This document shows, piece by piece, positions 1-19,400 of a stretch of DNA of 64,000 nt. Positions within the stretch are counted from its first letter, which is position 1, and each line of letters opens with the position of its first letter. The notes under the pieces are model-generated. The model saw only the letters and a program-made list of their open reading frames with translations. It searched no databases and had not been told where the DNA came from. Source of the stretch: a virus; IMG/VR virus record IMGVR_UViG_3300042991_001118, positions 52,167 through 116,166 of that record. One strand, written 5' to 3'. The translations under genes and the position numbers were made by a program.

Positions 1-177
1 CTCACAACTGAATGGATTATATTCAATTTTTGGTTTTTTTATGGTCTGCTGGATAATAATCCATTCAGTTGTGTCCATTGAGACACGTATTGATATCTTA
101 AGGGAATATGTCTCCCCGATATCTACGCTTTGCCTTCTCAATTCGTCCCCCAACATTTTAATCAGAGCGCATTTCAT
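1..177 (-). CDS. hypothetical protein, runs off the window edge (MKCALIKMLGDELRRQ...)
   Basis: Manual translation; ATG at 177 overlaps the stop of 174..617 (ATGA coupling); open to the edge. Confidence 0.5.
   Translation of the reverse strand, partial: MKCALIKMLGDELRRQSVDIGETYSLKISIRVSMDTTEWIIIQQTIKKPKIEYNPFSCE
3..73. repeat. perfect 18-bp inverted repeat, 35-nt spacer
   Basis: cacaactgaatggattat (3-20) / ataatccattcagttgtg (56-73). Confidence 0.9.
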
Positions 178-617
178 AATAGTTTCCCTCTAAATATTTT
201 TGCTGTCACGATGGTGTATTCTTCCAGGATTTCAAAACACTTTTTTATAATTGGTGTCCCGTCGGGTATTCCATCCGATGCATAAAGTATCCAGTCTTCT
301 TTCTGGATTTTATCGAATTTTTGATAGATATCAGGGGCATCGGTCGATGCCCAAATTTTTATGCATTTACCCGGATTGCCTTTTTGTGAAAATATCTGGA
401 TCGGAATTTTTTGGTTTGTCTTTGTTATCACGATATCCCCTATAAGAGATATCCTTCGTGCGAAAAACGATGTACCACGCTTTTCGAGATATTGCACCCT
501 TTCACTTTTTTCTCGATTTTTAGATTTTGCATTCCTCCTCAACGCAATCTTTTGTTTCTTGAGATTTCGTGCGCTCTGATTGCGTATCCTTTGTTTTTTT
601 AGACGTGGATTCTCCAT
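174..617 (-). CDS. hypothetical protein, basic N-terminus
   Basis: ORF in the tightly packed minus-strand run; purine-rich RBS-like AGAGGGA upstream. Confidence 0.6.
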   Translation of the reverse strand: MENPRLKKQRIRNQSARNLKKQKIALRRNAKSKNREKSERVQYLEKRGTSFFARRISLIGDIVITKTNQKIPIQIFSQKGNPGKCIKIWASTDAPDIYQKFDKIQKEDWILYASDGIPDGTPIIKKCFEILEEYTIVTAKIFRGKLL

Positions 618-625
618 GTTCCCTC

Positions 626-1237
626 TTATTTTCTTATTGATGTATTTGAAAGAGTCAATGCCCTATTGTGGCGAATACAGGATTGGCATTCGCCACATGG
701 TCTGGATTCGTCTCCTTGGCAAAACCAAATGTTTTCTAGGCATTTTTTTTGTACTTTGTCAGACATCATATTCTCTATGATTTCCGATTTTTCCATGTTA
801 ATTATTGGAAAGGAAATAGAGATGCCTTTTCTTGTTATCGAATTGTACTCAGAAGCGATCCCTTTAATTTCGTGGAGATATTGGATCGCCACATCTCCCG
901 AAACATACCCAAGATAAAGAGTCTCTTCTGGCATTGCATGTATTAGTCCTAAAAAAGCCCATATCGCGGGTTGTGCTATTCCATCTTCACCTGCTGGTCC
1001 AAGCCAGTATCTTTTGCTTTCATAAGAAAGAGATATTTCAGTATGAAAGAATTTCCAGCCCTCGTCATTGAGAATTTTTTTGATTTTATTTCGACTTCCC
1101 CTGCATTTCTTCGATCCAGATATCTGCGGGCAATTGAGAGAAATTGTTCTAATTACATGTGGAGAATCTTGCTGTTCTATGAGCGTCTTTATCAAGAGAT
1201 ATGTACTGTCTAGTCCACCAGACCATAAAATCAACAT
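626..1237 (-). CDS. queC: QueC-like PP-loop ATPase (7-cyano-7-deazaguanine synthase family, divergent)
   Basis: SGGLDST PP-loop; C-terminal Zn cluster WFC...PCGECQSC; KSEII motif. Confidence 0.75.
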   Translation of the reverse strand: MLILWSGGLDSTYLLIKTLIEQQDSPHVIRTISLNCPQISGSKKCRGSRNKIKKILNDEGWKFFHTEISLSYESKRYWLGPAGEDGIAQPAIWAFLGLIHAMPEETLYLGYVSGDVAIQYLHEIKGIASEYNSITRKGISISFPIINMEKSEIIENMMSDKVQKKCLENIWFCQGDESRPCGECQSCIRHNRALTLSNTSIRK

Positions 1238-1250
1238 GTTTTATTTTCCT

Positions 1251-1670
1251 TTATGATATTGGGTTTGGTACCACTGGTTTTGGTTCAAGAAAAAATTCGA
1301 TGAATTCAGCAGATGTTACCTTGTCTATATCTTTGGGATCGTCCGATGAGGTTTTTATTTTATAACCTAAAACATACATGTCTGAGACATTCAGACTTTT
1401 GGACTCGTACAGTGCCTTCGCGATATATCTGCACGCCGAGTTTTTTCTGGGGCTGTCCAGTATCAATTGGCACTGAACAGATTCTATAACGGAATTTTTT
1501 GGTTTGTCTTTATATGTGCAGAGAAACGAAAATTCCTTTAGTATACCGATTGGATGTCCCTCCAGAAGAATGGGAATTTCTCCATGGTATTTTGCCACGA
1601 TTTTAACAAATTCTTTATGCCAATCAATGCCCTGAATAGGCATTGGCAGCTTGATATTTACATATTCCAT
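1251..1670 (-). CDS. hypothetical protein
   Basis: Packed ORF, RBS GGAG. Confidence 0.6.
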   Translation of the reverse strand: MEYVNIKLPMPIQGIDWHKEFVKIVAKYHGEIPILLEGHPIGILKEFSFLCTYKDKPKNSVIESVQCQLILDSPRKNSACRYIAKALYESKSLNVSDMYVLGYKIKTSSDDPKDIDKVTSAEFIEFFLEPKPVVPNPIS

Positions 1671-1672
1671 CG

Positions 1673-1873
1673 CTAATTTTCTCCTAACTTTTCCATCCTC
1701 TTATCAATTTCCATGGCGCATTCCATACAGCAAGTATGCATCTCTAGGATAGAGATTGCGCTAAATTTTACGGTACGGATATACCAATCTTTAGGCTGTA
1801 TGGAACTCCCGTTAATATTTATCCTGGCAGGTTCCTGCTTTCCACATGCGTCACACTGGTATTTTACAGACAT
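1673..1873 (-). CDS. small Zn-finger protein
   Basis: CDAC...HTCCMEC. Confidence 0.6.
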   Translation of the reverse strand: MSVKYQCDACGKQEPARININGSSIQPKDWYIRTVKFSAISILEMHTCCMECAMEIDKRMEKLGEN

Positions 1874-1885
1874 ATTGTGTCCTTT

Positions 1886-2467
1886 TTACTGAGCCAACAA
1901 GAGTGTTGTCTTATCAGCCCAGATATCGTATTCGCTCGCATTCTTTTCGTAATCGATATATTTCTTCTCAATTTCTTGTAAAACATCTTGGTATTCATTT
2001 ACATCAAGATGTTTTATTTGAGTTCTCTCCATCTGCTTTTCAATGAACTCTCTCTGCTTTTGTAAGGTTAAAATGTTGTCTTTTTGATATGGGAACAGAG
2101 GCAGAGTTTCCAATATTTCCACGGCATTTTTAAATCCTTTTACATGCCTTCCCGTCCAGGTTTGGAGCAGATATGTATAGGCTTCTAAGAGGTATCCCAA
2201 TAGTCGAAGACTCTTTATTATTGGTTCTATTTTTCGATGTGGTGGATCGACATCTTCTGTGGCATATGTCTTGTCTTTTTTATATTCTCCCTGTTCCAAA
2301 TCCAGGGAATTTTTGATTCCATATATTAGAGGGAGAACCCTTGATTTTTTGTCAAGGAATCTGACGTTGATATATGGAATCAAAGATTCTATTTTTTCTG
2401 TTTTCATGTTTTGTCTTTTACCAGGAGAATATATCCTGGCGTTCCTTCCCTGAAATATGCAGAACAA
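1886..2467 (-). CDS. hypothetical protein (true start probably MKTEK near 2407)
   Basis: Packed ORF; the longer start overlaps the upstream MTase. Confidence 0.55.
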   Translation of the reverse strand: MFCIFQGRNARIYSPGKRQNMKTEKIESLIPYINVRFLDKKSRVLPLIYGIKNSLDLEQGEYKKDKTYATEDVDPPHRKIEPIIKSLRLLGYLLEAYTYLLQTWTGRHVKGFKNAVEILETLPLFPYQKDNILTLQKQREFIEKQMERTQIKHLDVNEYQDVLQEIEKKYIDYEKNASEYDIWADKTTLLLAQ

Positions 2468-3119
2468 CTTCTGTTGTCTTTTTCCTTAATCCTACGATTT
2501 CTCCCAGTTTAGACTTAAATGGCATCCAGTTTGCGCCAAGAGATTCGCATACTATTTTTTGTCCAAGTCTTGTTTCAATCCAGAATGCCAGGGCTTTATA
2601 GTCCAGGTTGTTCCCGACCTTATAGTTTTTCCCTGCAACTTGGTAAGGCGGATCGATGAACCAAGTTGCTTTTATGTCAGGTGACAGAAGATAACTGCCC
2701 TGGACGAATTTCCAATGGCGTATCTTATAGAGATTTTCCGCTATGTATTTCAATCGTTTCCCTTGGGATTCTGGTCTATCTATCGTCCGCCATCTCGTAG
2801 GCATTCTCCTTGGACTTTCAGGCGCAGCCGAAATAATAAAGCCAACTAGGTCTTTCTGTTCTTTGCAATCCCAGGAGAAGTCATCCACGCATTCTCCTAA
2901 TTTCATTTGGCGTATCCCAAGGATATCTTTCTCGGTACACCCCTGTAGCCATTTCCAAAGATTGATAATGACATCATATGCGTCAACTAGAATGACATCA
3001 TTCTCCCAATATCTCAAGGAATATTGTGCGCTTCCGGCGAATGGTTCAATGATCGTCGAGAATTCTGGTTTTGGATATTTTTTGGCCAGACGAAATTTAG
3101 AACCAAAATATGGGAACAT
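2418..3119 (-). CDS. DNA adenine methyltransferase, Dam/D12-like
   Basis: FPYFGSK, EPFAGSA (motif I), FIDPPY (motif IV). Confidence 0.85.
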   Translation of the reverse strand: MFPYFGSKFRLAKKYPKPEFSTIIEPFAGSAQYSLRYWENDVILVDAYDVIINLWKWLQGCTEKDILGIRQMKLGECVDDFSWDCKEQKDLVGFIISAAPESPRRMPTRWRTIDRPESQGKRLKYIAENLYKIRHWKFVQGSYLLSPDIKATWFIDPPYQVAGKNYKVGNNLDYKALAFWIETRLGQKIVCESLGANWMPFKSKLGEIVGLRKKTTEVVLHISGKERQDIFSW

Positions 3120-3123
3120 ATCT

Positions 3124-3429
3124 TTACTCCTTCAACAAGGATTCCATTTTTTTAATGATTTCCAGCAGTTTTTCCTTTTCGCTCCTAATCTCTCTGGAAA
3201 GCAGGTAATGCGCAACGCTATATTCCACAGCCCATTCGTCTACTTTGTACATTTTTGAACCAACTTTCAATTGACCTTTTCTTGGGGCATTGAAGTTTAC
3301 TATGACGATTTTCTTTCCATTTTGGTATTGAGCATAGCCTTCACTAATATCTTCTTTCACGAATTTTATTTTTTGCAATCCATTTTTACATGGATTTTTG
3401 AGCAAAAATAGTTCATTTGGGTATTCCAT
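3124..3429 (-). CDS. hypothetical protein
   Basis: Packed ORF. Confidence 0.55.
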   Translation of the reverse strand: MEYPNELFLLKNPCKNGLQKIKFVKEDISEGYAQYQNGKKIVIVNFNAPRKGQLKVGSKMYKVDEWAVEYSVAHYLLSREIRSEKEKLLEIIKKMESLLKE

Positions 3430-3431
3430 AT

Positions 3432-3848
3432 TTAGTCCTTTAAATAGGCTGCAAAATATTCCATTTTCCCTGGTCCATAAGTGTGCGATTTTACTCTAAT
3501 TTTTACGGAGGAATCTTCTATAACATGAAAAGAATCAAAGAGCATTTCTGTACTTAGAATATTTTCTAATGCTTTAAGACATGGCAGAAATAATTTCGTC
3601 CTGTCTATAAATTCTGTTTTCAAAATAGGTTCAAAATTCATATAAAATATATGGTGAACTACTGGGGGATTCCCCACAAGGGAACTTTCGTTTTCATATT
3701 TTGAGTAGTGGGAAAACAATATATGGTTTTCTCTTGCCTTTAAATAACTGAAGAGAAACGACCTATTTTGTGGCTTATTGTCTATTTCTTCCTTTCCGTT
3801 TCCACCCTCTCGTTCTATACATAGTTTTTCTAACGCTCTCTCATCCAT
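3432..3848 (-). CDS. hypothetical protein
   Basis: Packed ORF. Confidence 0.55.
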   Translation of the reverse strand: MDERALEKLCIEREGGNGKEEIDNKPQNRSFLFSYLKARENHILFSHYSKYENESSLVGNPPVVHHIFYMNFEPILKTEFIDRTKLFLPCLKALENILSTEMLFDSFHVIEDSSVKIRVKSHTYGPGKMEYFAAYLKD

Positions 3849-4198
3849 TTAGCATCCTCTCTTTCCATCTTTATCGCTTCTTGTTCTGCCTCGTATCTGA
3901 TAAACCACCACCAGAACTTTCCATCTTCTGTTGTTTCCCATTCCCCAGTTTTCCAGGATTCCCATTTCTTCTCCCATTTGCGCACCATTGCTTCGTCGCT
4001 CATGGTGTCGCATCCTTCGCAAGTGATGGGATTCCCAAAGATTTTTTTATGATTTGTCGTGATGATTCGGAAATAATCTCCCAGAACGAATTTCTTTCCA
4101 CAGAATGCACACCTACAATACTCTCCAGGCTTACCACGAAGCCACCTAGATTTTAAATGTGATTCCGCTATGCGTTGTGGTTTTCCATGAAATTGCAT
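3830..4198 (-). CDS. Zn-finger, Trp-rich hypothetical protein (start MQFHGK)
   Basis: CAFC...CEGC; start chosen to avoid a long overlap with 4168..4485. Confidence 0.55.
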   Translation of the reverse strand: MQFHGKPQRIAESHLKSRWLRGKPGEYCRCAFCGKKFVLGDYFRIITTNHKKIFGNPITCEGCDTMSDEAMVRKWEKKWESWKTGEWETTEDGKFWWWFIRYEAEQEAIKMEREDAKWMRER

Positions 4199-4485
4199 TT
4201 TTTCCAATCCTTCTCTGCAATAATTTTGCTGCGTAACAAGAATTCTTCTACGTCCTGTAGAAGCGTTTTCTTGATGGATGCTGATTTGGTAATCGCAAAG
4301 CGCACTTTGTTTTCCTGTAAAGAATTTTCTACAGGGACATATATCAGGGTGCAGAGGAATCCAGTGGTTCCAAGTCCCAATTTTGGAACCGTGCATTGCA
4401 GCAAATTTGGGACAAAAACTACTTCTAGTCTTACCCGATAAAGTCTAGATTTCAAATGGGATTCTAAGTTTTCTAAAATATCCAT
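4168..4485 (-). CDS. hypothetical protein
   Basis: Strong RBS GGAGG upstream. Confidence 0.6.
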   Translation of the reverse strand: MDILENLESHLKSRLYRVRLEVVFVPNLLQCTVPKLGLGTTGFLCTLIYVPVENSLQENKVRFAITKSASIKKTLLQDVEEFLLRSKIIAEKDWKKCNFMENHNA

Positions 4486-4496
4486 ATTCCTCCTAT

Positions 4497-4517
4497 GAGG
4501 TCGCGTATTGCGACCTC
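4497..4517 (-). promoter_or_regulatory. 8-bp GC-rich hairpin directly upstream of an RBS
   Basis: gaggtcgc-gtatt-gcgacctc, intergenic, no U-tract. Confidence 0.45.
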
Positions 4518-4521
4518 TCCT

Positions 4522-4953
4522 TTAGAATGGGCATTCAGGTTTTGTTGACGGTTGGAGAATTTTTTCTTCTGTTTGTGGATATTCTATCCCAGATATTTGT
4601 GCTGTTTTTAGTGGTAAAGGTATCTTTAAAGGCACTTCTTGTTTTACGATTTTTTTTGGCTTTGTCTTGTGTTTTTGTTCTTCCGCTGAGACGTACGAAT
4701 ACGAAAGAACAATCCCATCCTTCAATTGAAGGAAAAATTTTGCGATTAAATAAACATCTCCCGTAGAATACTCCACAGTGGAACTCTCATGAATTCCCTT
4801 CCCGCATAAGTATCCCACTCTCTCATCAGATGGGGAGTCCTCGGCAATTACCTTCCCACCCGACATGATTTTAAAGGTACCTGGGACTATCGGAGTAAAC
4901 TCCGTCTTCCCAATAATTTTGGTTTGGCACATTGATTCTTTCTTGATATTCAC
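4522..4953 (-). CDS. stand-alone copy of the recurrent virion module plus Lys/Pro-rich tail
   Basis: PIVPGTFKI...STVEYSTGDVYL...LSYSY resembles inserts in capsid, sheath and baseplate; RBS GGAGG. Confidence 0.6.
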   Translation of the reverse strand: MNIKKESMCQTKIIGKTEFTPIVPGTFKIMSGGKVIAEDSPSDERVGYLCGKGIHESSTVEYSTGDVYLIAKFFLQLKDGIVLSYSYVSAEEQKHKTKPKKIVKQEVPLKIPLPLKTAQISGIEYPQTEEKILQPSTKPECPF

Positions 4954-4969
4954 TTATTTTTCCTCCAGG

Positions 4970-5059
4970 TTAAGATGTTTTCTTGCATCTCATACAAAAA
5001 ACTTTGTTATTTTGTCTCTCTATCGTCATACGAGACCCACAATTTGGACAAGGTTTCAT
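4970..5059 (-). CDS. 29-aa Zn-ribbon microprotein (MKPCPNCGSRMTIERQNNKVFCMRCKKTS)
   Basis: Manual translation; fills the gap between genes; CPNC...CMRC. Confidence 0.6.
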   Translation of the reverse strand: MKPCPNCGSRMTIERQNNKVFCMRCKKTS

Positions 5060-5062
5060 TTT

Positions 5063-5758
5063 TTATCCCCAAAATAATCTTTTGATTTCCTCACAAGAAG
5101 TGTTTAAAACCTCTTCTTGTCCCTTCGCTGCGTCTATCTCTACAATTTTCGTCATGGGCGGGACATGAGAGAAGACGTACTTGTAGTTTTCCTTCACATT
5201 TTCGAGTGTCGCATCGAAAATGTCGCTATGTTGCCCATCTCGCGATTTTCTTCTTTTCCCTGCGACCTCAATCGGCAAATTGAGATACAGCACGATATCT
5301 GGTAGAGGTATTGAAGAGAAAGACATTCCATTTATTCCGATCAGCCAAGACCAAAGACTCCGGTCCTTGTCCAGTTGGTATGCTAGCGTTGAGTATACAT
5401 ACCTGTCACAGATAATGTTGTACCCAGACAATAATGCCGGGCGCAGCACGTTATTGATATGATCTATCCTGTCAGCCGCAAAGAGCAGCGATAGCTCGGC
5501 GATTGCTAATTCATTGTATGTTTTTGCTGCTGATGGGTTATTTAAACCCTCTGCCGTAAAGAGGGAAGTCCTTCCCGTGATGAATTGCTTTAAAAGACAT
5601 CCAACCGGACCGTCCGTTGGCTCTTTTGTTCCTAATATTGGGACTTCTTTACTTTTAAAGTATGACACGATCCCTTTTTGGAGCGTCGTGATTCCGCTAC
5701 CATCAATACCTTCTATCACGATAAATTTCCCAATATTCATACGTATTCCTCTTTCCAT
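5063..5758 (-). CDS. tmk: thymidylate kinase family protein, P-loop Lys replaced by Ile
   Basis: FIVIEGIDGSGITT, KEP, LLFAADR, ICDRY, PDIVLYL. Confidence 0.85.
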   Translation of the reverse strand: MERGIRMNIGKFIVIEGIDGSGITTLQKGIVSYFKSKEVPILGTKEPTDGPVGCLLKQFITGRTSLFTAEGLNNPSAAKTYNELAIAELSLLFAADRIDHINNVLRPALLSGYNIICDRYVYSTLAYQLDKDRSLWSWLIGINGMSFSSIPLPDIVLYLNLPIEVAGKRRKSRDGQHSDIFDATLENVKENYKYVFSHVPPMTKIVEIDAAKGQEEVLNTSCEEIKRLFWG

Positions 5759-6036
5759 CTTGGTCGTAATAGAGGGAAGGCGTTCTTGTGGTTCCCCTTT
5801 AGCATGTCAAATAACATATACCCTAGTCCTAGTGACTTCAATCCAAAATCTCCTTTCAATTCTTTCAAAAACTCTTTACACAAATCCTCCGGTGGTTCAG
5901 ATTTAAACACCAAGATTCCATTGATGTTTAAATCTGGATTTTTTAAAAACATTACAAAACCACCGCCACTTTCTAAATTTGGCTTTGGATCGAATACAAG
6001 CCTTTTATATTGGCTTTGTTGTTCTAGAATAGGCAT
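5737..6036 (-). CDS. hypothetical protein
   Basis: Overlaps both neighbours by a few codons; RBS GGAGG. Confidence 0.55.
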   Translation of the reverse strand: MPILEQQSQYKRLVFDPKPNLESGGGFVMFLKNPDLNINGILVFKSEPPEDLCKEFLKELKGDFGLKSLGLGYMLFDMLKGNHKNAFPLLRPRWKEEYV

Positions 6037-6923
6037 TTTTTGCCCTCCATGTAACTAAAAATATGCGCAACTACATCTACGGTCCACCCATTCCCCAGCA
6101 TTTTATACCTCTGAAAATTTGATACACCATAGGTGTACCCAATCGGGACGGTCTGTAATTTTTCGCACTCTTCCGGGGTGAACTTCCGTAGCTCTCCGTG
6201 GACGTTTATTTTATTATTTTCTATCCAACTACCGTTGGATGTAATGGTTGGTGTAATGTCAAAAAACTTTTTACCTTTGTTGTATCCATGTGCCCTTTGG
6301 TCTACATAGACCATCGTCCTCTGCGATCTACCTCGCAGATAGTCGTTTCTCCCACATTTAGCATACGTTGCCGTTAAGCAGTATGCTAACTGTCGGTCTA
6401 CCATGCCGGATTCGATTATGTCTTCCAGCACGACATTTCTCTTATCCGGTTGCGGAAAAGGCCAATTCGCCCAATACATTCTTTTCCTAGACTGTGCTGA
6501 GACTAAGGAGGAATCGACCTTTACTGGACGTATCCCTATCCTGTCTGAAATCACATCTAGCCATTCTTGTTTCATGCATACGTTTTCTAAAAAAACGTAT
6601 TTTGGCTTTATCGCTTGGACAATAGAGATAAATTCCAGAACCAACTGACTTCTTGGGTCTTTAAATCCCAGGGATTTACCACATATTGAAAACCCCTGGC
6701 ATGGAGACCCACCCATGACTAAATCGATTTTCGGTAGCGTTCCGATCCAATCACTCCACTCCTTGATATCTCCAAGCTGAATCGTGGAGGGGAAATTTTT
6801 CTGGGTAATCGAAATACAATATTTATCGGTCTCTGACGAAAAATATTGATCTACCGGAATCCCTGCTTTTTTTAGTGCTATCTGTCCACACGACATCCCA
6901 TCGAAACAAGACAAAACATTCAT
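6024..6923 (-). CDS. DNA (cytosine-5) methyltransferase
   Basis: FDGMSC (I), GGSPCQGFS (IV), ENV (VI), QSRKR (VIII), LGNGW (X). Confidence 0.93.
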   Translation of the reverse strand: MNVLSCFDGMSCGQIALKKAGIPVDQYFSSETDKYCISITQKNFPSTIQLGDIKEWSDWIGTLPKIDLVMGGSPCQGFSICGKSLGFKDPRSQLVLEFISIVQAIKPKYVFLENVCMKQEWLDVISDRIGIRPVKVDSSLVSAQSRKRMYWANWPFPQPDKRNVVLEDIIESGMVDRQLAYCLTATYAKCGRNDYLRGRSQRTMVYVDQRAHGYNKGKKFFDITPTITSNGSWIENNKINVHGELRKFTPEECEKLQTVPIGYTYGVSNFQRYKMLGNGWTVDVVAHIFSYMEGKKCLF

Positions 6924-8059: not shown

Positions 8060-8467
8060 TTACCCTCGAAATATATCCTTTAGTCTACTTGGTGGTGATT
8101 CTTGTTCTTTTTGTTTTTGCTTGCCAGTTTCTTGTTCCGGTTGTTCGACGGTTGCGCCACTATTTAGCAACAAGAGAGAGACAATTGAGTCTAGTGAATC
8201 TTTGATTTCCTGCAAAGTCTTCATGACTTTGTCGTCTGTTTCATGTGAAAGGATGGCTGAAATAACTTTGCAAACGTATACTTTGTCCTGGCTATTGCCA
8301 TTCTTGGCATACAAAATCAATTCTGGAATTAACCCAGCCAGATCAAATCCGGTATCTTTAAGCTGTACTTTTATCCCAGTTCCATAGAGAAGTTGTAGGG
8401 CAGATTCTTTTTCATCATGCACCTGGCTAAACATCATTTCTTTCAGAAAATTTAACAAATTATCCAT
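8060..8467 (-). CDS. hypothetical helical protein
   Basis: Coupled to the upstream ORF. Confidence 0.6.
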   Translation of the reverse strand: MDNLLNFLKEMMFSQVHDEKESALQLLYGTGIKVQLKDTGFDLAGLIPELILYAKNGNSQDKVYVCKVISAILSHETDDKVMKTLQEIKDSLDSIVSLLLLNSGATVEQPEQETGKQKQKEQESPPSRLKDIFRG

Positions 8468-8948
8468 TTCCGAACTCCAATATTTCCGTAAGGACTTCCT
8501 TTGATTTTTGTTTTGACTTTGGAATAGATTCCTGAGATTTGGAAATTGTATTTTCCAATACCTTCACGCTTTTCCAAAGCTGCATGATTTGCATTTCTTG
8601 TTTCACGTCTTCTGAGTTTAGATTCCCTGCCATGGATTTCAATGATTCGATAGATAGAGTTGTTTCCCTAACGGAGGATAATTCATGTCCCAATGAGGAC
8701 ACCTTTTGCTCCAATATAGAAACCCTAGAAATCAAAGCTATCACCTCCTGCGATAGCTTGTCGTTAATAATGACTTCTAGCCTTTCCCTTGTTAGGGAGT
8801 CTAGTCTTTTTAACAGTGCTTCGGATTCTGGGTCTTTGTCGCTTTTGATTTCAGTATTGAATGCCTGGAAAATTGGCTTTATGATAGTCCGCATAATCCA
8901 AACGATAATTCCTACTTTGTCCGACATAAATACACCTTCCCATATCAC
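8460..8948 (-). CDS. coiled-coil protein with hydrophobic N-terminus
   Basis: VGIIVWIM; heptad-like LISRVSILEQKVSSLGHELSSV; follows the kinase. Confidence 0.6.
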   Translation of the reverse strand: MIWEGVFMSDKVGIIVWIMRTIIKPIFQAFNTEIKSDKDPESEALLKRLDSLTRERLEVIINDKLSQEVIALISRVSILEQKVSSLGHELSSVRETTLSIESLKSMAGNLNSEDVKQEMQIMQLWKSVKVLENTISKSQESIPKSKQKSKEVLTEILEFGNG

Positions 8949-9997
8949 TTTGTTTCGTCCTTAATTGGGGCAAAATTTAGGACGTTTTCCTTGGCCATTT
9001 GCATTAGAAGTTCCCATTCGGCCAAATTCATGTTAAATATTTTTTTTACCTTTCCCGTGTTCCCCCCACACAGGATTAAAAAATCAGAAAATGCCCTAGC
9101 TACAGACAACGCATCTTGCGCTATGATTTTCTTTTCTTCTCCAAGATTAAATTCTGGGAATGCGTCTATAATGTCCTGAAAAAATTCGACAGTATTTCCT
9201 GGTCTTCGTTCTCTATCATCTTGCCATGCTTTTGGCAAGGTCATTAGGAGTTCTACCGGGAGATTTTCTGGGGCAAATTCATCGTCATTCGCAACCATGA
9301 AATAACATATCTTTGCGAGTGCAAAGATATCTGCTCTTTCATCGACATTCCCAGCGTCCTCCATCTGTTCTGGTGCGGCATATCCAGGCGTGCCAAGAAT
9401 TGCATTAGTCCTCGTCAGGACATTTTCTATTCCAGACATCGCTATACCGAAATCTATGAGCTTTGCCTGTCCAGATTCCGTTATGATGATATTGTCAGGT
9501 TTTAAGTCCCGATGCACGACGTTATATGAATGCAGTAGCCCGACTCCCTGCACTATTTGTTTAAATAACAACAACTTGTCTTTTAGAGACAAGGACGCAC
9601 CCTGTGTTTGTATATATTTTCTTAGGTTGCTTCCTTTGCAATACTCGCATACAAAGTAGAATGGGGATTCTCTTAAGTCATATACCAGGGGGAATGGAGG
9701 AATTCTTCCAGACAAGATTTCACTATCTGATATCGTTGCCATTATTCTAGTGCTTCTGATAAACCTTTTTTCGTTCTCTTGACTGAGGTCAGGGAGTCTA
9801 ATATTGAGAACTCTCTTTTGATTCAAAAGCATGTCTTTGTATAAAATGACTAGTTTTTCAGATCCCATTCCGAGGGTTTCTAAATACTCTCCCTGTGGTA
9901 CGCAATCCCGTATCATGGAATTTGCATACATATCGACATTCCCAGCCATGAAGAGTTTTAATTTTTCGTAAAAATTTTTGTCTTTTCTCCCCAACAT
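8945..9997 (-). CDS. Hanks-type Ser/Thr protein kinase with atypical (WNK-like) N-lobe
   Basis: HRDLKPDN, DFGIA, GTPGYAAPEQ, ADIFAL; Gly loop GMGSEKLV; beta3 VLNIR. Confidence 0.9.
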   Translation of the reverse strand: MLGRKDKNFYEKLKLFMAGNVDMYANSMIRDCVPQGEYLETLGMGSEKLVILYKDMLLNQKRVLNIRLPDLSQENEKRFIRSTRIMATISDSEILSGRIPPFPLVYDLRESPFYFVCEYCKGSNLRKYIQTQGASLSLKDKLLLFKQIVQGVGLLHSYNVVHRDLKPDNIIITESGQAKLIDFGIAMSGIENVLTRTNAILGTPGYAAPEQMEDAGNVDERADIFALAKICYFMVANDDEFAPENLPVELLMTLPKAWQDDRERRPGNTVEFFQDIIDAFPEFNLGEEKKIIAQDALSVARAFSDFLILCGGNTGKVKKIFNMNLAEWELLMQMAKENVLNFAPIKDETK

Positions 9998-10007
9998 AGT
10001 TCGCTCC

Positions 10008-11492
10008 TCATTTACTTGGTGTGGGGTTTTTCTTTTCTTCTATTGGTGTCCATTTACAGACAACTCCACCAGAATTTTTTAAAAGCAAATCTTTAAATTC
10101 GATTGGAGTTTTTTTCTTATCGAAATAATCTACCAAAGTTTGTGGATCCGTGGTGGACAGAACACATATCGTCTCTTCTGTTAATCCAGAAAATTGAGAT
10201 TCTGCATTGACCTTGTCTTTTATCCCAGAACCCCATTTTGCCCTAGACTCTGAATAGAACGCCGAGTTTTTATTTTTTGTTTTTAATACGATATTGCATT
10301 CTTCAAGTCCTATAAAATTGGCAGAATTTCCTAAAATAGAGACGATTCCGATAGAGCAAATAGCTTTTCCGCGAAGTTGGGGACACCAGTACGAGTCTAA
10401 TTTATGCAAAAATAATGGGCCAGAACTATAAACAAATTCTGTAGTTTGTATCAGAGAGAATAGCCCAGCGAATAGCATAAGCTGTGTTGTAAAATCTCCT
10501 CCTGTTTGGTTCTGGAAGGAACAAAAAATTAAATTATTGCTGTTGTCTACGCCTTTCTTCCCTATCGAAAAATTTTGCAATTGCTTATCAAATGCAGTAC
10601 ACGTGATATTGGTATCCACATCGAATCTTTGCAGCGATAAAATCATTGTTGCAGCTTGTTGTCTCACGGTTTCTTGATATAGCAAGACAGAGAAAACCCC
10701 TTCCATTCCGGGCATTAAGGCACTTAAAAGCAATAAGTCTTCTTGTGTTAGGGCTTCTTTGTCCTCTAATGTGTCAATGTATAGAATTCCGATAAGTGTA
10801 TCGCTATGGAACATAGGAAAGCATATGGAGCTACAAACCTTATTTTCAACAATGCTCCTGGATAGGTCGTCAGGGTCTTCGACTTCTGTTGTCGAGAATC
10901 TTTTTGCTTCTTTCGTCTCCCAAACTTGATCTAAGATATACCGTGGCGGAACGAAGTTTTGTGGTGCTTTTGCTACGATAGGTATCCATTTTTTATTATC
11001 TACACGGTATACCACGCCACGATTGATATGGAAATTTTGTTCTAGGAAGTCCAATAAAAATTTTGAAAATTGTGAAAGACTCCTGGGCATCCGGTTAAAA
11101 AAATCGCGTGACAATTTTTCTGCCACGTTCTTTTTATTGATTAGCTCCACGCCAATAGCCCGGACCTTACTTGTCTCCATTCTCCTGGTAGCCTGAGCTT
11201 CGTCTTTAAAAATTACAATGCACCCCTGTTTGGGATGCCCCAAGACAATCACGTCGTTGTGATTTATCTTTATCGTGCTACTTGGTGCGATGGATACCCC
11301 ATTGACCCAGGTGGATCCATCTAGAGTTTCCATTATGACGCTTTCTGAATCGCGTCGTATTCTCGCATGTGCTGCCGATACGTTTTTACATTTTAATCCT
11401 AATGCTTGTAGCCATTCTAGGCTAAAAATGACAGGGTCATCACCTAGTATGATATTTTTCCCTGATTCTTGCAAGACGATATATGCGGGCAT
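10008..11492 (-). CDS. FHA-GAF-degenerate PP2C (SpoIIE-like) signalling protein
   Basis: FHA: VSAAHARI...TWVNG...DVIVLG; GAF: SRSIV..SSICFPM..LIGILYID..TQEDLLLL; C-terminal TGGDF remnant (weakest call). Confidence 0.75.
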   Translation of the reverse strand: MPAYIVLQESGKNIILGDDPVIFSLEWLQALGLKCKNVSAAHARIRRDSESVIMETLDGSTWVNGVSIAPSSTIKINHNDVIVLGHPKQGCIVIFKDEAQATRRMETSKVRAIGVELINKKNVAEKLSRDFFNRMPRSLSQFSKFLLDFLEQNFHINRGVVYRVDNKKWIPIVAKAPQNFVPPRYILDQVWETKEAKRFSTTEVEDPDDLSRSIVENKVCSSICFPMFHSDTLIGILYIDTLEDKEALTQEDLLLLSALMPGMEGVFSVLLYQETVRQQAATMILSLQRFDVDTNITCTAFDKQLQNFSIGKKGVDNSNNLIFCSFQNQTGGDFTTQLMLFAGLFSLIQTTEFVYSSGPLFLHKLDSYWCPQLRGKAICSIGIVSILGNSANFIGLEECNIVLKTKNKNSAFYSESRAKWGSGIKDKVNAESQFSGLTEETICVLSTTDPQTLVDYFDKKKTPIEFKDLLLKNSGGVVCKWTPIEEKKNPTPSK

Positions 11493-14336: not shown

Positions 14337-14799
14337 TTTTCCCTTTCTTCATGCTTTTTCTTTCGGCCTTGGATTTAACCGATCCATCGTCTAGGATATC
14401 ACAATAGTTGTAAATTGCCTTCCGGATATTTGCTCTTCCATTTGGATTTAGGTATATGTGTACCGACATACCAAATTTCTTTTCGTATCCTTTATACTTC
14501 CTGGCAGCCTGTACCGTGGCATTTGGTGCCGTTGTTTTGACTTGTAACCATCCTATTCCATGTAGGACAACGGGGTATGTCGTTCCTAATGCAAATCGTA
14601 AAGTTTCTAAGTATGTCATAATGATTTGTTGAAGTTTTTTCTTGGAATATCCCAATTTTTTCAGTTTATTGACAGTGCTATCCATAATTTCTTTTTGGCT
14701 AATCCTGGCACGAATTTGTGTAGGAATTTTTTTTTCTTTGTTATAGTCACGCATATGTTTTCTCCGAAATTCCCGCATAACGTTTTTTACAACGTTCAA
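14329..14799 (-). CDS. basic HU/IHF-like DNA-binding protein
   Basis: Helix followed by ALG..VVLHGIGWLQVK, resembling HU VxLxGFGxF. Confidence 0.5.
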   Translation of the reverse strand: MNVVKNVMREFRRKHMRDYNKEKKIPTQIRARISQKEIMDSTVNKLKKLGYSKKKLQQIIMTYLETLRFALGTTYPVVLHGIGWLQVKTTAPNATVQAARKYKGYEKKFGMSVHIYLNPNGRANIRKAIYNYCDILDDGSVKSKAERKSMKKGKND

Positions 14800-16495
14800 T
14801 TACGAGATTTTTTATAAACGATTTTGTCGTAGAATTTTCGACTAAATTAGACAATTCTACGGGATTTATATCTTTTGGCAGATAGAAATTTGAAGAAGAG
14901 ACCACTGCACTTGCTCCTCCATCACGCAAAAGTTCTATCGCTTTTTTTGATCGTGGTCTACTTTCCAATAAAGAAAAGACCTCCATTCTTTCTTTTTCTT
15001 CATTTTCAATACTCTCTAAGGTGTCCATCGCTTGTCCTATTTCTTCTTTTGGTTCTTCTGGCGGTTTTTGCAACAATTTCTCCACCATAGAAGGTGTAAA
15101 TTGGGCATATTCCGTCATAACGTGTTTGGTCCAGAATTCGGAATTCCACTCGTGCTCTTTCCCTAAACTTAGTGCTCTATCCAATAAATCAAATCTGAGA
15201 GCTAAAAGCTCCTTCCGTTCCAATTCTTGGTAGACAGATACAGGCTGCATCATCAAGACGAAACTATTTTGTGGATCTCGGGTATTGATATTGTGCCAGG
15301 CAAGATGGGTTTCTAGAATTGTCGCGAGGGTTTTTAAAAATGCATGTTGCGGACGGATACATGCTGTCGAGAATCCAACGTCCTGTTTTGCTAGGGATTC
15401 TTTCCTATCATATGACCCACCCAAATCAAGACCGAGATACCCGGCAGGGAAGTTCAATACGGCAAATAGCCTAGCCATAATCATATTTGCATCGTCCAAA
15501 GACGCTACGTTTCCGGCAGAAACGTGAGAAATTGATGTCCTATTATCACCGCATGTCGGGATGACGAAAGCCCGCATTTCACCCCAGGCGGCAGGTGATG
15601 TCAACATCTCTCCAGTTTCTGGATTAGAATACAACGTTTGGTACATCCGTTCCTGCCATTCTTTACATGCTAAGAATGCGTCTTCTGTGGACATTCCACC
15701 TACATCCAACGTAATCATTTCTTTGTCTGAACGTCGCAGCCTTTCTATCAAAATTTTATCCCAGCACCATTGTAGTTCTTGCCAGTATTCTCGAATATTG
15801 AAAAGTAAGGAGCATTCAGACCCATACCAGGCTGTCCTCTTTCTATTTGGCATTCTAAAATGTGCGACAGAATAGTATGGGACACTATTTGTCGCGTCCA
15901 CAGGTTTCCCTTCATTGTCCGCATGAGAATAAGCAGATACTTTTCTGCTTTCATCAAAACAACACGCAAGTTCCCATGGTTCGTATGGAAGTAAAGATAT
16001 AATTCCCTGGTCTTGATTTGCTGGCAAATATTCAAAATGGTCGCCGAGATGGTACATTGTCCGCAACATCGCGAATGTATTTTCATCGAGGGCATGGGTG
16101 TCTAAAAATTTGTAAAGAATATTTTCGATGTCTTTATTCGCAGAATAAAGCCAAACTGCTCTACCAGCCTCCACACCCGAAGTATCTGTGTTGAACTGTG
16201 TACAGGCACCAGCATATGCGTCCAAGACTCTTCCTATCAATGGGTCTTGTTCTATCTCGACATATGTGGCGTAAAGCTGAATGCGATTGTAATCATGTAA
16301 TGCCCTAAAGTAGTCGTGCATTACATTGTGTGCTGTTCGATGTGGATTTATGCTGCTACCTTTTGAGAACGAATTTTGCACCACGGGTTCCCTATAAAAG
16401 TTGTGGACTGCCCGGAGCGCACTAATGGGATGTGCGATATATTCCAAAATCTTATCCATGTGATCTTCCTTTGATAATTTGTAGATATTCGTCAT
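14747..16495 (-). CDS. portal protein, T4 gp20-like
   Basis: VAHFR, ITLDVGGM, LFAVLNFPAGYL; follows terminase. Confidence 0.8.
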   Translation of the reverse strand: MTNIYKLSKEDHMDKILEYIAHPISALRAVHNFYREPVVQNSFSKGSSINPHRTAHNVMHDYFRALHDYNRIQLYATYVEIEQDPLIGRVLDAYAGACTQFNTDTSGVEAGRAVWLYSANKDIENILYKFLDTHALDENTFAMLRTMYHLGDHFEYLPANQDQGIISLLPYEPWELACCFDESRKVSAYSHADNEGKPVDATNSVPYYSVAHFRMPNRKRTAWYGSECSLLFNIREYWQELQWCWDKILIERLRRSDKEMITLDVGGMSTEDAFLACKEWQERMYQTLYSNPETGEMLTSPAAWGEMRAFVIPTCGDNRTSISHVSAGNVASLDDANMIMARLFAVLNFPAGYLGLDLGGSYDRKESLAKQDVGFSTACIRPQHAFLKTLATILETHLAWHNINTRDPQNSFVLMMQPVSVYQELERKELLALRFDLLDRALSLGKEHEWNSEFWTKHVMTEYAQFTPSMVEKLLQKPPEEPKEEIGQAMDTLESIENEEKERMEVFSLLESRPRSKKAIELLRDGGASAVVSSSNFYLPKDINPVELSNLVENSTTKSFIKNLVIERCKKRYAGISEKTYA

Positions 16496-19400
16496 ACGCT
16501 AATTTGTTTGGAACATGAACGTCTTTTACGTCTGTAGGGCTTATTGTGTCAATAAGACAAGCGTATGTCGCACCAGCAAGAGCATCGGATGTGTCTTTTG
16601 ACCCGCCCTCTGGGTGATCTACTTTGTTTTCAGCCAAGTTAAAATCTAAGTCTAGCAATTCCTGTTCTAGAATCGGGATAATTGGCATATTCATTTTTTT
16701 TGCATTTATTGTGTTTCGCGTGATTAAGTATGGCTTCACATCCCGGTCGATCGAAATCACGACAGCCTTAATTCCTGCTTCTGTTAATCTTTGGATAGAG
16801 TCTTCCGATTGCCATGAATCGTATGATACTTGGCGTATCCAAAAATTTAATTTTCGTAAAAAAAAGATTAGTCTTCTGATATTGTCAAAATCAATTGGCT
16901 GTTTATTACGACCGCCTTCCAATGCAATAACGAAATCTACCTCTATTTCTTTGCATATGTCCAGTAAATTCAAGTCTTCATTTTGTGTCGAATAGGGTGT
17001 CAGGATATGCTTGCTAGGATGTACACAAGCGATTCCAGCACGACATGTGTTTTTAGCCAAGTCAACATGTAGATATCTTGGACAATCGGGATGCCTTCTT
17101 GGGTAGTATTGGCTACCACGAATCGTGCAGCCTATTTTTTCCAAAAACAAAGAGGCCAATTCAATTCCACAACCCAAATGAATCTGCATTATATCAGATT
17201 CAAATAAATTCTTCAAATCCTTATTTTGACAAGAGAGCACCCGTTCTTTATTTGAGAAGAGTTTCATAAAGCTCTTGGTTGAAATCCCTGCGAGATTCCT
17301 TGTCGCGCTTTCGCAGTCAATATCGAAAGCGTCGAAATGCTCTACAGGAACTTCAAAAACCTGACAATTTACGTTTGCTTCACATCGTGGAGAGGTTGTG
17401 TAGTTGCCTAGTTCATCTTTTATCACGTCATCTAAAACCTTACAGTCGGATGTGTTATTTCCCAGTTGTACATGGAATTTCTTTCCGCAATACGCAACTT
17501 TTTGATTGAAATCCCAAATAGATCCTCGGACGACATATCTACCAGCCTTATTCTTTACGGTTTTGATTCTTTTTTCAATAAAGTCGTCTTCCGATCCAGC
17601 ACTCCCTATAAAGACCGCAACTCCAGGGATATCTCCACTTCTTTGTATAAAACGTGATTCTAGACGTGTTGCCACGGCATTGGCTAAGTCGTATGCTCGT
17701 TTTGCGGTAGCCTGCCCTTTCCTCATCAGGTTCATTTCATCGACGGAGATAAAAAACAAGTTTTTTCCAGCCGCATGCAATGCCTGTGATCCCGTCATCA
17801 CGACTAAGGATTTTGGGAATATCATTTCTTCTGTGCCAAAAGGGCTTCTACGATAGAGGTTTTGGAAAAAGGGTGAGTCTTTGAGAATTTGGTCACGGAG
17901 AATATAAAATCCAGTATCCTCTGCACTTTTTAGGTCGTAAGAATAAATTCCAAAGACGATTTTTGATTTGCGTCCAAGTCCAAAAAATTTAGCTGGGTCA
18001 CGGAGGCACAGCACACGATGCAGTTGGTATGCCGCGATTACTCCATTTGCGATTGTGCTATTATGCGTTACAAAGCCATTTGCCACATATGACGGATTTC
18101 CATCGACTGTTAAATCAAAACATGGAGCACATCCCTTCGTGATAGAAATAACCTTATTTTGGCAAATGTCTCCATCAACTATCTTTTTTAGCAGACATGG
18201 CATCCCATTTCCCAAGATGCTGTCTATTTTTTCAAGAATTCCAATCGTTATATCTTGCGATCCCATCTTGCAATTTACAAACATATTCCTATATGGTTTT
18301 CTACTCGGTACTCTTCCTTTTAAATTTTCCCATGCCATTCTTATAAGATTGGAGCAGTTGTAAATAGATTCGCAATCATTTTTCCCACCACAATTAAGCT
18401 GCTGGCTGATTTTTTCAAGTTTTCTTTTATTGGAAAATCCGATTTTTTTGAGAAACGTTATCTTAGAACGATTCCCTTTAATCCTTATAGTCCATGCCCT
18501 GTTATGTCCGATACCTTTAATTTGTGGTATTTTACTTGTTCTACTTGTTCTAATCCCTAAAGCCAATAATGCTATTTGTGCTTGTCTTCCTAATTCTTCG
18601 CTTATCGTAGTAAATTCGATAATGTTTTTTCCATATACCGTACCATCCGTATCGAATAATCCACGTAAAAATGCACATAGCAAATCAGGATGAGACAAAA
18701 CGCATCCTGGTATACTTTTATTGATAGCCCCAGTTTTTATGCCAAATGATTTCCATCGAAGGTATATTGTTTTGTTTGTCTGTTTTAACGCAAATCTGTA
18801 ACATTGATATTCCTTTATGTTGTATCTAAAATTTATTTTGTTGCATAATTGCGATAAATGTTCGATGTATTGTTTGTCTTGGAATCCTATTGATATGGAA
18901 ATTGCACCAGAATCTTCATACCAATGTCCATTTCCTGTCCAGCTACCAAGAATTTCTGCTTCAGCCAAATCCATCACGGCTTTGTATTCACAATTTGCCC
19001 TTTTATCTTCCAAAGAAAATACTAGGACATCATCAATTGATATGTCCTGTAAAAATTTCCATATCAATTCTCCATTTTTGTTCCAGGCACGGACTCTATG
19101 CTCTCCCCTTCCTTCTATCTCATATCCATCTAAAGTCTTTATTTTAATTGTATCGGATACCCCAGCATCATATACGCCATCCACTCTTCTAAATCCATCT
19201 TCGGTTAAAACTTTTTTACCAATTTCAATCTTCCCTAATTCGCATAGGAAATCAGCACTGGATTTACATAATGTATTATCTCTTAGGCATTTGCCTATAC
19301 CCATTGCGCCCGTTAGAATTACCTCAAATACTGGCTTAACGGGATCGCATATTTTGAGGATATGCGGCCACCAAGCCTTAAAAATTTCCTCTTTGAAATG

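Follow-up and report, generated by a model that had tools for sequence, protein, structure and literature searches.

A candidate pseudophosphatase-kinase signalling pair shared by related large myoviruses

Four open reading frames (ORFs), all on the minus strand, form the locus described here, which lies in a 64,000-nt window (positions 52,167 to 116,166) of IMG/VR virus record IMGVR_UViG_3300042991_001118. The first (10008..11492) encodes P0001, a 494-aa FHA-GAF-pseudoPP2C protein delineated from its ORF and translation, an AF2 model, fold matches and a homologue family. The second (8945..9997) encodes P0002, a 350-aa Hanks-type Ser/Thr kinase recognized by Pfam Pkinase, AF2 and VIA. An initial reading of the DNA made from the sequence alone had placed these two genes 10 nt apart, and this distance was confirmed; the gap holds a GAGGAG Shine-Dalgarno sequence upstream of the kinase that overlaps the stop codon of the 494-aa ORF. 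The remaining two ORFs are small, and the overlap reported between them was also confirmed, at 8 nt (ATGGATAA). P0003 (8460..8948) has 162 aa if read from the GTG at 8948 and 155 aa if translation begins at the ATG at 8927, the more likely start, which has a GGAAGG site upstream. Its N-terminus is hydrophobic and is followed by a coiled-coil-like region. P0004 (8060..8467, 135 aa) is helical; in ESM Atlas its features resemble those of HEAT-repeat clusters (score 0.95), but few features are shared, which makes this a weak lead toward a HEAT/TPR-like protein. Searches of Pfam, PHROGs, PADLOC and NCBIfam returned no significant family match for P0003 and no family match for P0004. Tight translational coupling is the one tie of both proteins to the module, in which their membership is putative.

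The source record, which comes from a cave metagenome, is a 116-kb fragment of a large tailed phage. The same strand carries genes for the major head protein, protease, sheath, tape measure, baseplate and portal. The module sits mid-record with morphogenesis genes on one flank and DNA-modification genes (two for methyltransferases and one QueC-like) on the other. Contigs of related phages reach about 130 kb. No further kinase, FHA domain or canonical PP2C was found elsewhere in the 116-kb record, six-frame searches included, and no integrase or other lysogeny marker was found in this fragment.

P0001 was reported to have an FHA-GAF-PP2C architecture, which was borne out by fold matches and, for the FHA and GAF domains, by Pfam: the AF2 model has a pLDDT of 83.4, and each of its three domains matches solved structures. 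Residues 1-99 (11196..11492) form a degenerate FHA domain, detected both by Pfam (PF00498, 25.9 bits with the cut-off at 20.7, E 1.3e-5) and by comparison of the AF2 model with VIA (Z 13-14, rmsd 1.5-2.0 Å over 83-90 residues), with 24-26% identity to the FHA domains of DgcB, EmbR and FhaA. Residues were mapped with an alignment of P0001 to five intact bacterial FHA-GAF-SpoIIE proteins (alignment A3). In A3 the canonical GR motif corresponds to S24-L25, placing L25 at the Arg position, and the SxNG loop is shortened by two residues and carries G59 where the Asn would be; S39 and H42 of the SxxH motif are retained. P0001 therefore has an incomplete set of phosphothreonine-binding residues (the Arg of the β3-β4 GR, the Ser and His of SxxH, the Ser and Asn of SxNG). 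Across the family G59 is nearly invariant (90% or more), and while the Asn is present in none of nine members, four of the nine have the Arg. The earlier claim that Arg and Asn are both missing thus holds for P0001 itself, although the GR position is S24-L25 rather than the LGDD first proposed, and the loss of Arg does not extend to all relatives.

The GAF domain (PF01590/PF13185; residues about 119-276, 10665..11138) falls just below the Pfam cut-off (22.3 bits against 22.4), with borderline GAF/GAF_2 E values of 2e-4 for P0001 itself; nine of the 11 family members match GAF or GAF_2, the best at E 2e-6. The fold of residues 119-276 matches 3p01, 1vhm, 3mf0 and 3trc with VIA Z scores of 14-16. 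By eye, the P0001 sequence has no NKFDE-like motif of the kind found in cNMP-binding GAF domains. Averaged over the family, identity reaches 48% in the GAF domain as compared to 34% in the FHA and 22% in the PP2C-like domain, and the description of the GAF as well preserved is accurate in this relative sense.

Residues 291-483 (10044..10622) clearly match the alpha-beta-beta-alpha PP2C fold of the SpoIIE/RsbU type in VIA and ESM Atlas, so that the C-terminus does have this fold; its metal site is incomplete. The best VIA matches are 3es2 (RssB, Z 16.0), 6k4e (SiaA, Z 15.9) and 3ke6 (Rv1364c-RsbU, Z 15.7), followed by 5ucg (Z 14.7) and 3w40 (RsbX, Z 14.4), with 179-202 residues aligned at rmsd values of 3.1-3.4 Å. 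Foldseek matched P0001 to SpoIIE (E 2.5e-6) and RssB (E 5e-6), and ESM Atlas gave TM values of 0.70-0.76 between the PP2C-like domain and SpoIIE clusters. At the level of sequence profiles, RsbX is a weak match (E 0.26), none of 11 family members matched the Pfam SpoIIE (PF07228), PP2C or PP2C_2 profiles at E values up to 1, and SpoIIE/PP2C profiles found nothing in six-frame searches of the record.

Of the four metal-binding Asp positions, P0001 keeps one, D333, which corresponds to the Asp of DxSGxG; the GxG that follows is lost. In A3 the GGD Asp is replaced by Asn, TDG by S446-T447-T448 and the terminal DD by G475-G476, a mapping that comes from low-identity alignments (hhalign probability below 1%) and is backed by the RsbX HMM alignment and hhalign. 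The losses of GxG, the TDG Asp and DD (the last to a conserved GG) run through the whole family, and D333 is kept in most members. The sequence-only reading had credited the domain with TGGDF alone, DxxGHG and TDG being absent; loss of GxG and TDG stands, but D333 aligns to the DxxGxG Asp and not to GGDxxD. Judged from these residues, P0001 can probably be neither a phosphatase nor a phosphothreonine reader.

In Sorangium, fusions of SpoIIE-like phosphatases with FHA or GAF domains have been described (PMC2887360). Remote homologues of P0001, found through its FHA-GAF part, include bacterial FHA-GAF-SpoIIE proteins (P0165, P0175, P0193, P0194 and P0203), which agree with it in domain order, are spaced much alike and also have helical linkers. 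Unlike the phage family, which is about 60 aa shorter and scores nothing with SpoIIE, these cellular proteins keep GGDxxD, DxSGxG, TDG and DD and match Pfam SpoIIE at E values of 1e-44 to 1e-49. The phage FHA domains lack the Asn, and in P0001 also the Arg; two of the five cellular proteins (P0165 and P0203) likewise have a degenerate FHA. Because the remote matches include intact-motif proteins of the same domain order, descent of P0001 from bacterial FHA-GAF-SpoIIE phosphatases is plausible. It had been suggested that the phage captured a host circuit; the capture is not a recent one, since the best cellular kinase matches are distant (about 30-36% identity, as compared to 41-55% inside the phage family) and no full-length cellular homologue of P0001 above E 1e-7 was found. 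Nor was there a counterpart of the full FHA-GAF-PP2C architecture in the viral structure and sequence collections searched, BFVD included, or an FHA-GAF-PP2C partner within 8 kb of 12 other kinases on IMG/VR viral contigs, some of them giant-virus records.

The family of P0001 comprises about 10 full-length homologues of 460-501 aa at 30-38% identity, with 12 matches at E<1e-30, and truncation occurs only at contig ends. P0001 thus stays full length across deep divergence and shows no decay. In a subcluster of close relatives, the partner is 90-94% identical as compared to 94-97% for the kinase. In eight relatives, homologues of the kinase and of its partner could be paired by identical contig sizes (130959, 131806, 13605, 4486, 8727, 11856, 8432 and 3295 bp), a coincidence from which co-location is deduced. 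Since two of these shared contigs are 4.5 kb or less, the pair appears to be syntenic, so that, by this measure, it recurs in related phages. Linkage to the kinase and the phage setting are accordingly both borne out, by the 10-nt gap, the shared contigs and the structural genes on the record.

The kinase domain of P0002 matches Pfam Pkinase (PF00069) at 107.6 bits against a cut-off of 31.7, and its AF2 model (pLDDT 83) aligns with AMPK (Z 24.1) and PknB (Z 23.9) in VIA; the N-lobe is atypical, and a three-helix extension follows at the C-terminus. Among 13 orthologues at 41-55% identity, HRD (162-164), N169, DFG (182-184) and APE (208-210) are invariant or nearly so, and the αF Asp, the αH-αI Arg and the catalytic-loop Lys are also invariant. 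An HMM alignment to Stk1/PknB places N65 at the β3 VAIK Lys and S82 at the αC Glu, the latter position being Gly in most orthologues. The Gly-loop reads G43-x-G45-x-x-K48, and K48, at the position of the third Gly and the start of predicted β2, is a Lys in 12 of the 13 orthologues. In WNK1 the ATP-binding Lys has migrated from β3 to β2 (PMC12599244). P0002 resembles WNK in the absence of the β3 Lys, in a Lys at the third-Gly position (GxGxxK) and in the retention of HRD and DFG, but lacks the αC Glu that WNK1 has. It has no specific homology to WNK, its best matches being bacterial kinases of the PknB/Stk1 type (27-28% identity). By a sequence-based definition (no β3 Lys), P0002 would count as a pseudokinase; most likely, though, it is active, with a non-canonical mode of ATP binding.

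In the explanation we favor, which we consider about evenly balanced between right and wrong, P0001 would be a GAF-bearing pseudophosphatase that regulates, or serves as an adaptor for, a WNK-like active kinase during infection, the two genes making up a conserved Ser/Thr-signalling module in a clade of large myoviruses. The losses common to about 10 homologues at 30-38% identity argue that P0001 is a maintained pseudoenzyme rather than a decay product, and its reading as a pseudophosphatase shares the standing of that joint explanation. P0001 would derive from a bacterial phosphatase of the FHA-GAF-SpoIIE(PP2C) architecture. Family-wide, the phosphothreonine pocket of the FHA domain is gone, as are three of the four metal-binding Asp residues of the PP2C domain, and the GAF sensor is the best-kept part. 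The kinase, predicted to be translationally coupled 10 nt downstream and with its catalytic C-lobe intact, could then have in P0001 a regulatory subunit responsive to a GAF ligand, or a substrate adaptor, acting without catalysis. Its substrates may be host or phage proteins phosphorylated in infection, for takeover or counter-defence, as with the T7 kinase. The analysis shows the folds, the lost residues, their conservation in the family, the sharing of contigs and the phage setting; we infer the binding of P0001 to the kinase, the activity of the kinase, a ligand for the GAF domain, the proteins targeted and what the pair does in biology. The parts that the sequence-only reading assigned to P0001, as a scaffold, a decoy or a gate on an infection decision, would likewise be conjectural.

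Known systems offer partial parallels to a pseudophosphatase regulator of this kind. TAB1 is a eukaryotic pseudo-PP2C that serves as a regulatory subunit activating the TAK1 kinase. The likeness to P0001 and its kinase is a functional analogy, TAB1 having neither FHA nor GAF and no sequence relationship to P0001 having been shown. The top structural match of the PP2C-like domain, Pseudomonas aeruginosa RssB (3es2/3eq2; Z 16.0, rmsd 3.1 Å over 198 residues, about 9% identity), resembles P0001 in joining a sensor domain through a long helix to a PP2C fold. It differs in being cellular, in having a receiver domain and no FHA-GAF, in acting on sigma-S/ClpXP and, in the structure matched, in its intact active site. 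Escherichia coli RssB, on the other hand, is a pseudophosphatase that lacks catalytic Asp residues and works as a protein adaptor (PMC6546054). Among phage-encoded Ser/Thr kinases, that of T7 broadly disarms host defenses (PMC13645617). P0002 shares with T7 gp0.7 and the phrog_2361 kinases that it is a phage-encoded Ser/Thr kinase and matches phrog_2361 ("serine-threonine kinase") at E 1.8e-35; it differs in its atypical N-lobe and, compared with the 12 other IMG/VR viral-contig kinases examined, in its adjoining FHA-GAF-PP2C partner.

The pair could instead be a defense carried by the phage, the kinase being an abortive-infection or superinfection-exclusion effector like PD-T4-6 or Stk2 and P0001 its sensor or brake, a reading we regard as rather unlikely. 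In such a system P0001 would free the kinase activity upon a competing phage or signal. P0002 matches the PADLOC PD-T4-6 model (PDLC04047) at 139.8 bits (E 2.5e-41), as well as the MADS6 and BREX PglW kinase models, a GAF sensor coupled to a kinase suits a trigger-effector logic, and the neighborhood is rich in DNA-modification genes. The PADLOC models are, however, generic Hanks domains without curated cut-offs, NCBIfam scores are far under the curated ones, and these matches amount to generic Hanks-domain similarity; a role in defense or superinfection exclusion is as compatible with the PD-T4-6 match as the role proposed above. Moreover, P0001, P0003 and P0004 have no defense-family match, the record (a fragment) carries no lysogeny marker, and core-like conservation in a clade of ~130-kb phages fits an infection function as well as exclusion.

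A more elaborate version of the favored explanation, and one we think quite unlikely, is a ligand-gated counter-defense holoenzyme, in which a doubly dead P0001 would sense a small molecule through its GAF domain and activate a WNK-style kinase lacking the β3 Lys, which would phosphorylate host defense or takeover targets. The ligand might, for example, be a metabolite of the host or a second messenger of immune signalling.

It is improbable that both proteins are dead, that is, that a pseudokinase and a pseudophosphatase act as non-catalytic binders or decoys sequestering host signalling proteins or nucleotides. The kinase does lack the β3 Lys and αC Glu, bacterial pseudokinase families such as DYD retain HRD and DFG without those residues (PMC12599244), and two domains of the partner are degenerate; against this, all C-lobe catalytic residues are invariant in the 13 orthologues, a pattern typical of active enzymes, and the WNK position carries a conserved Lys.

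Improbable, too, is that P0001 still works as a phosphatase through a metal site that has been rearranged, which would make the locus an ordinary reversible kinase/phosphatase pair of the sort common in bacterial operons. The fold is well predicted, D333, retained by most members, takes the place of the key bridging Asp, and D316 and D449 sit 1-3 residues from two of the lost Asp sites. With these two residues, and with a Glu 1-2 positions past the TDG site in some relatives, some residual metal binding may persist. The nearby acidic residues are not positionally conserved, however, and every family member lacks GxG, the TDG Asp and the terminal DD, with no Pfam signal for a SpoIIE or PP2C domain in the 11 searched. 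As for a decaying, functionless remnant of captured host DNA, the motif losses in two domains and the weak conservation of the PP2C-like domain (22%) are outweighed by full-length homologues in about 10 lineages, confidently predicted folds, tight coupling to neighboring genes and losses that are common to the whole family and hence old and maintained, so that decay is effectively refuted.

To our knowledge, how phage-encoded kinases that disarm defenses are regulated is largely unknown. Here a whole phage clade retains a kinase whose ATP site is non-canonical beside a sensor that resembles both a phosphatase and a phosphothreonine reader. A ligand-gated counter-defense kinase, if that reading is true, would be of a type for which no phage example has yet been described. 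Provided that the two proteins function as a unit, they would offer a compact case from a bacterial virus of pseudoenzyme-controlled kinase signalling, comparable to TAB1-TAK1 and STRAD-LKB1, and a testable kinase with a β2 Lys, as in WNK, outside eukaryotes. Should they not form one unit, P0001 would still be a clean example of a maintained phage pseudoenzyme.

The 494-aa FHA-GAF-pseudoPP2C protein P0001 (10008..11492, minus strand) was shown to be translationally coupled to, and co-inherited with, the 350-aa Hanks-type Ser/Thr kinase P0002 (8945..9997, minus strand), whose catalytic C-lobe is intact. Both genes, and the small ORFs P0003 (8460..8948) and P0004 (8060..8467) that follow them on the same strand, were present as described in the sequence-only reading and lie in a co-oriented, tightly packed gene array. 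The stop codon of the upstream ORF is 4 nt from the P0001 start, and 10 nt separate the P0001 stop, which is spanned by a GAGGAG site, from the kinase start. P0003 begins either at a GTGA overlapping the kinase stop or, more likely, at an ATG at 8927 behind GGAAGG; its overlap with P0004 is 8 nt, and a gap of 4 nt separates P0004 from the ORF that follows. Scans for consensus promoters and terminators found nothing delimiting a unit. The N-terminus of P0003 is hydrophobic and precedes a coiled-coil-like region; P0004 is helical with a weak HEAT/TPR-like lead. Neither these two nor four neighbouring ORFs had a significant match in Pfam, PHROGs, PADLOC or NCBIfam, and coupling to the kinase is the sole link of P0003 and P0004 to the module.

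Co-inheritance is read from eight cases in which the longest contigs carrying kinase and partner (P0001-like) homologues were equal in length (130959, 131806, 13605, 4486, 8727, 11856, 8432 and 3295 bp). The two genes together occupy ∼2.5 kb, and therefore must be neighbours on the 3.3-kb and 4.5-kb contigs; several contigs of 128-138 kb suggest a clade of phages near that size. A mirror-tree comparison of kinase and partner identities across six distinct lineages gave no significant correlation (r 0.23), and complex prediction for P0001 with the kinase scored 0.42 against 0.46 for the single control, which speaks neither for nor against binding.

The 116-kb virus record has an estimated completeness of 61%, and at that completeness no integrase was found in it. 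Nearly all long ORFs of the window are on the minus strand, including those for the major head protein, head protease, tail sheath, tape measure, baseplate wedge and portal. The module sits mid-record, with the portal gene (14747-16495) and five unassigned ORFs upstream. Downstream lies a minus-strand nucleotide/DNA-modification cluster (174-6923) with a C5 cytosine methyltransferase (6024-6923), a thymidylate kinase (5063-5758), a D12 N6-adenine methyltransferase-like ORF (2418-3119) and a QueC-like ORF (626-1237), the last of which hints at 7-deazaguanine DNA modification. Contamination with host DNA was rejected, since phage genes on one strand flank the module on either side in the middle of the record. 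The phage setting and the P0001-kinase linkage first read from the sequence are both supported. Two other minus-strand ORFs are unusual in size: a single 2189-aa ORF (55650-62219) adjoins the head and packaging genes, and a 1093-aa ORF (16452-19733) weakly matches terminase large subunit and endonuclease PHROGs. For a terminase the latter would be of exceptional length, which may reflect a fusion or an insertion.

The window DNA is found in a cave metagenome, from which it probably came. In a freshwater-sediment metagenome run, two 151-bp contigs are nearly the same as 8739-9010 (1-2 differences), so the phage may have a very close relative beyond the cave sample. No RNA datasets with the window DNA were listed among the matching sequencing runs, and these runs showed no variation usable for pN/pS.

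P0002 clearly belongs to the Hanks-type kinases (Pfam 107.6 bits; AlphaFold2 pLDDT 83; Z 24 to AMPK and PknB). It also matches the PD-T4-6 models, which brings in the main rival explanation of the locus, a phage-carried exclusion or defence kinase; however, the PD-T4-6 matches are generic. Across 13 orthologues with 41-55% identity, HRD (162-164), the catalytic-loop Lys and Asn, DFG (182-184), GTPxYxAPE, the αF Asp, the αH-αI Arg and two activation-loop Thr residues are all kept. The β3 Lys position is occupied by N65, within a conserved VLNIR (residues 63-67), and the αC Glu position by S82, where most orthologues have Gly. In the Gly loop (residues 43-48), K48 takes the third-Gly position of GxGxxK and is present in 12 of the 13. 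In WNK kinases a β2 Lys takes over ATP binding from the β3 Lys (PMC12599244), and the P0002 family resembles them in having a Lys at the same Gly-loop position as the WNK catalytic Lys and no β3 Lys. Since the C-lobe catalytic residues are invariant, we infer that P0002 is an active enzyme. A fully non-catalytic pair, to which the replaced β3 Lys and αC Glu could be referred, is less likely given the invariant C-lobe.

Beyond the catalytic domain, residues 299-341 (8975-9103, minus strand) form a conserved three-helix unit with GGNxGKVKK followed by EWExLM, which has no Pfam match and recalls a small Fis-type helix-turn-helix. Among the remote kinase matches, the cellular metagenome protein P0034 is a Hanks kinase fused to a SpoIIE-like domain (Pfam E 2e-6) that apparently lacks the DxxGxG and TDG motifs, and may unite in one chain what the kinase and pseudo-PP2C pairing divides between two.

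In P0001, Pfam detects only an FHA domain (E 1.3e-5) and a borderline GAF domain. An exhaustive HMMER search found about 10 full-length homologues (460-501 aa, 30-38% identity), and an AlphaFold2 model built with the family alignment (mean pLDDT 83.4) was compared with 48,161 PDB representatives. Residues 1-99 matched FHA domains (Z 13-14, rmsd 1.5-2.0 Å, 24-26% identity to DgcB, EmbR and FhaA), residues 119-276 matched GAF domains (Z 14-16), and residues 291-483 matched SpoIIE/RsbU-type PP2Cs (Z 16.0 to Pseudomonas aeruginosa RssB, 15.9 to SiaA, 15.7 to the Rv1364c RsbU domain, 14.7 to SpoIIE and 14.4 to RsbX). Foldseek likewise returned SpoIIE (E 2.5e-6) and RssB (E 5e-6), and in the ESM Atlas SpoIIE accounted for 28 of 30 feature matches to residues 285-494, with TM 0.70-0.76. 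Three structure searches thus place a PP2C fold at the C-terminus. The long helices of the model (residues 98-133 and 250-286) may correspond to the linkers that carry signals in GAF- and receiver-coupled PP2Cs.

Remote matches of P0001 include bacterial FHA-GAF-SpoIIE proteins with the same domain order and high-scoring SpoIIE domains (Pfam E 1e-44 to 1e-49); other FHA-GAF proteins carry HisKA, HD-GYP or cyclase outputs. Five intact FHA-GAF-SpoIIE proteins were aligned with nine P0001 family members at low identity (alignment A3). In the FHA domain, the 'GR' position is S24-L25, the 'SxxH' residues S39 and H42 are retained, and the 'SxNG' loop is two residues shorter, with its Asn replaced by G59, nearly invariant in the family. 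The Arg is retained by four relatives and the Asn by none. The loss of the phosphothreonine-binding Arg and Asn from P0001 thus stands as first read, but the LGDD then assigned to 'GR' lies one strand too early. Two of the five cellular proteins, P0165 and P0203, also lack the 'GR' Arg and/or 'SxNG', so degeneration of the FHA within this architecture extends beyond the phage family.

In the PP2C-like domain, the 'GGD' Asp position is Asn, with D316 1-3 residues upstream; the 'DxSGxG' Asp is kept as D333 and the GxG is lost; the 'TDG' position is S446-T447-T448, directly followed by D449; and the 'DD' position is a conserved G475-G476. TGGDF is retained and TDG is missing, as had been noted, with the mapping corrected so that the TGGDF Asp is that of 'DxSGxG'. 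An alignment to the RsbX HMM sets TDG against non-acidic residues, and local hhalign of the domain with five active SpoIIE domains, used as corroboration only at a probability of <1%, was topologically sensible and in the same register as A3. No family member gives a Pfam SpoIIE or PP2C signal. We conclude that P0001 is a putative pseudophosphatase with a non-canonical FHA, a reading drawn from low-identity alignments in which displaced acidic residues lie near the lost sites. A working phosphatase that uses such residues is less likely, set beside the replaced motifs.

The same losses are common to lineages only 30-38% identical, and every family member is full length unless a contig end truncates it, which speaks against recent gene decay, the reading that missing motifs alone might invite, and indicates that P0001 is maintained. 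Within the family, the GAF domain has a mean identity of 48%, the FHA domain 34% and the PP2C-like domain 22%, so the GAF sensor is the most constrained part. Identity in one subcluster of close relatives is 90-94% for the partner and 94-97% for the kinase. A more distant group that includes P0135 and P0136 (464-517 aa; E 1e-19 to 1e-22) matches P0001 residues about 52-276; these two come from JGI metagenome contigs of up to 54 kb. Pfam assigns nothing to the C-terminal halves of the group, which may form a sister family with a different output.

No second kinase, second FHA or canonical PP2C was found across the 116-kb record, and no FHA-GAF-PP2C partner within 8 kb of 12 other IMG/VR kinases. 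IMG/VR scans with P0001, the kinase and partner alignments, P0125 and P0008 returned no close relative, and tblastn against GenBank phages no orthologue (all matches <60% identity and <80% coverage). A metagenome scan with generic kinase motifs yielded kinases only (best full-length matches ≤34% identity), a DNA pattern derived from KRVLNIRLP gave 25 chance matches encoding no relatives, and word-based protein searches with P0001 and alignment A2 recovered only the query. BFVD held single-domain viral matches only (phage GAF proteins and giant-virus PP2Cs; TM by query ≤0.28), and a full-text literature search combining phage, FHA, GAF and SpoIIE/PP2C turned up no account of a module of this kind.

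The sequence-only observation of a degenerate FHA-GAF-PP2C protein beside a kinase is thus confirmed with two motif-mapping corrections, and its interpretation is partly supported: a captured host circuit would be ancient at best, and scaffold or decoy remains a putative role for P0001. The module combines known kinds, namely bacterial FHA-GAF-SpoIIE proteins, pseudo-PP2Cs and phage kinases. In our preferred reading, P0001 would serve the kinase as a regulatory subunit or adaptor, controlled through its GAF domain and without catalysis of its own. TAB1, itself a pseudo-PP2C, activates the TAK1 kinase and is one precedent for such a role. Another is Escherichia coli RssB, a pseudo-PP2C adaptor (PMC6546054). 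The kinase, for which the T7 kinase offers a precedent as a broad anti-defence factor (PMC13645617), would modify host or phage proteins during infection.
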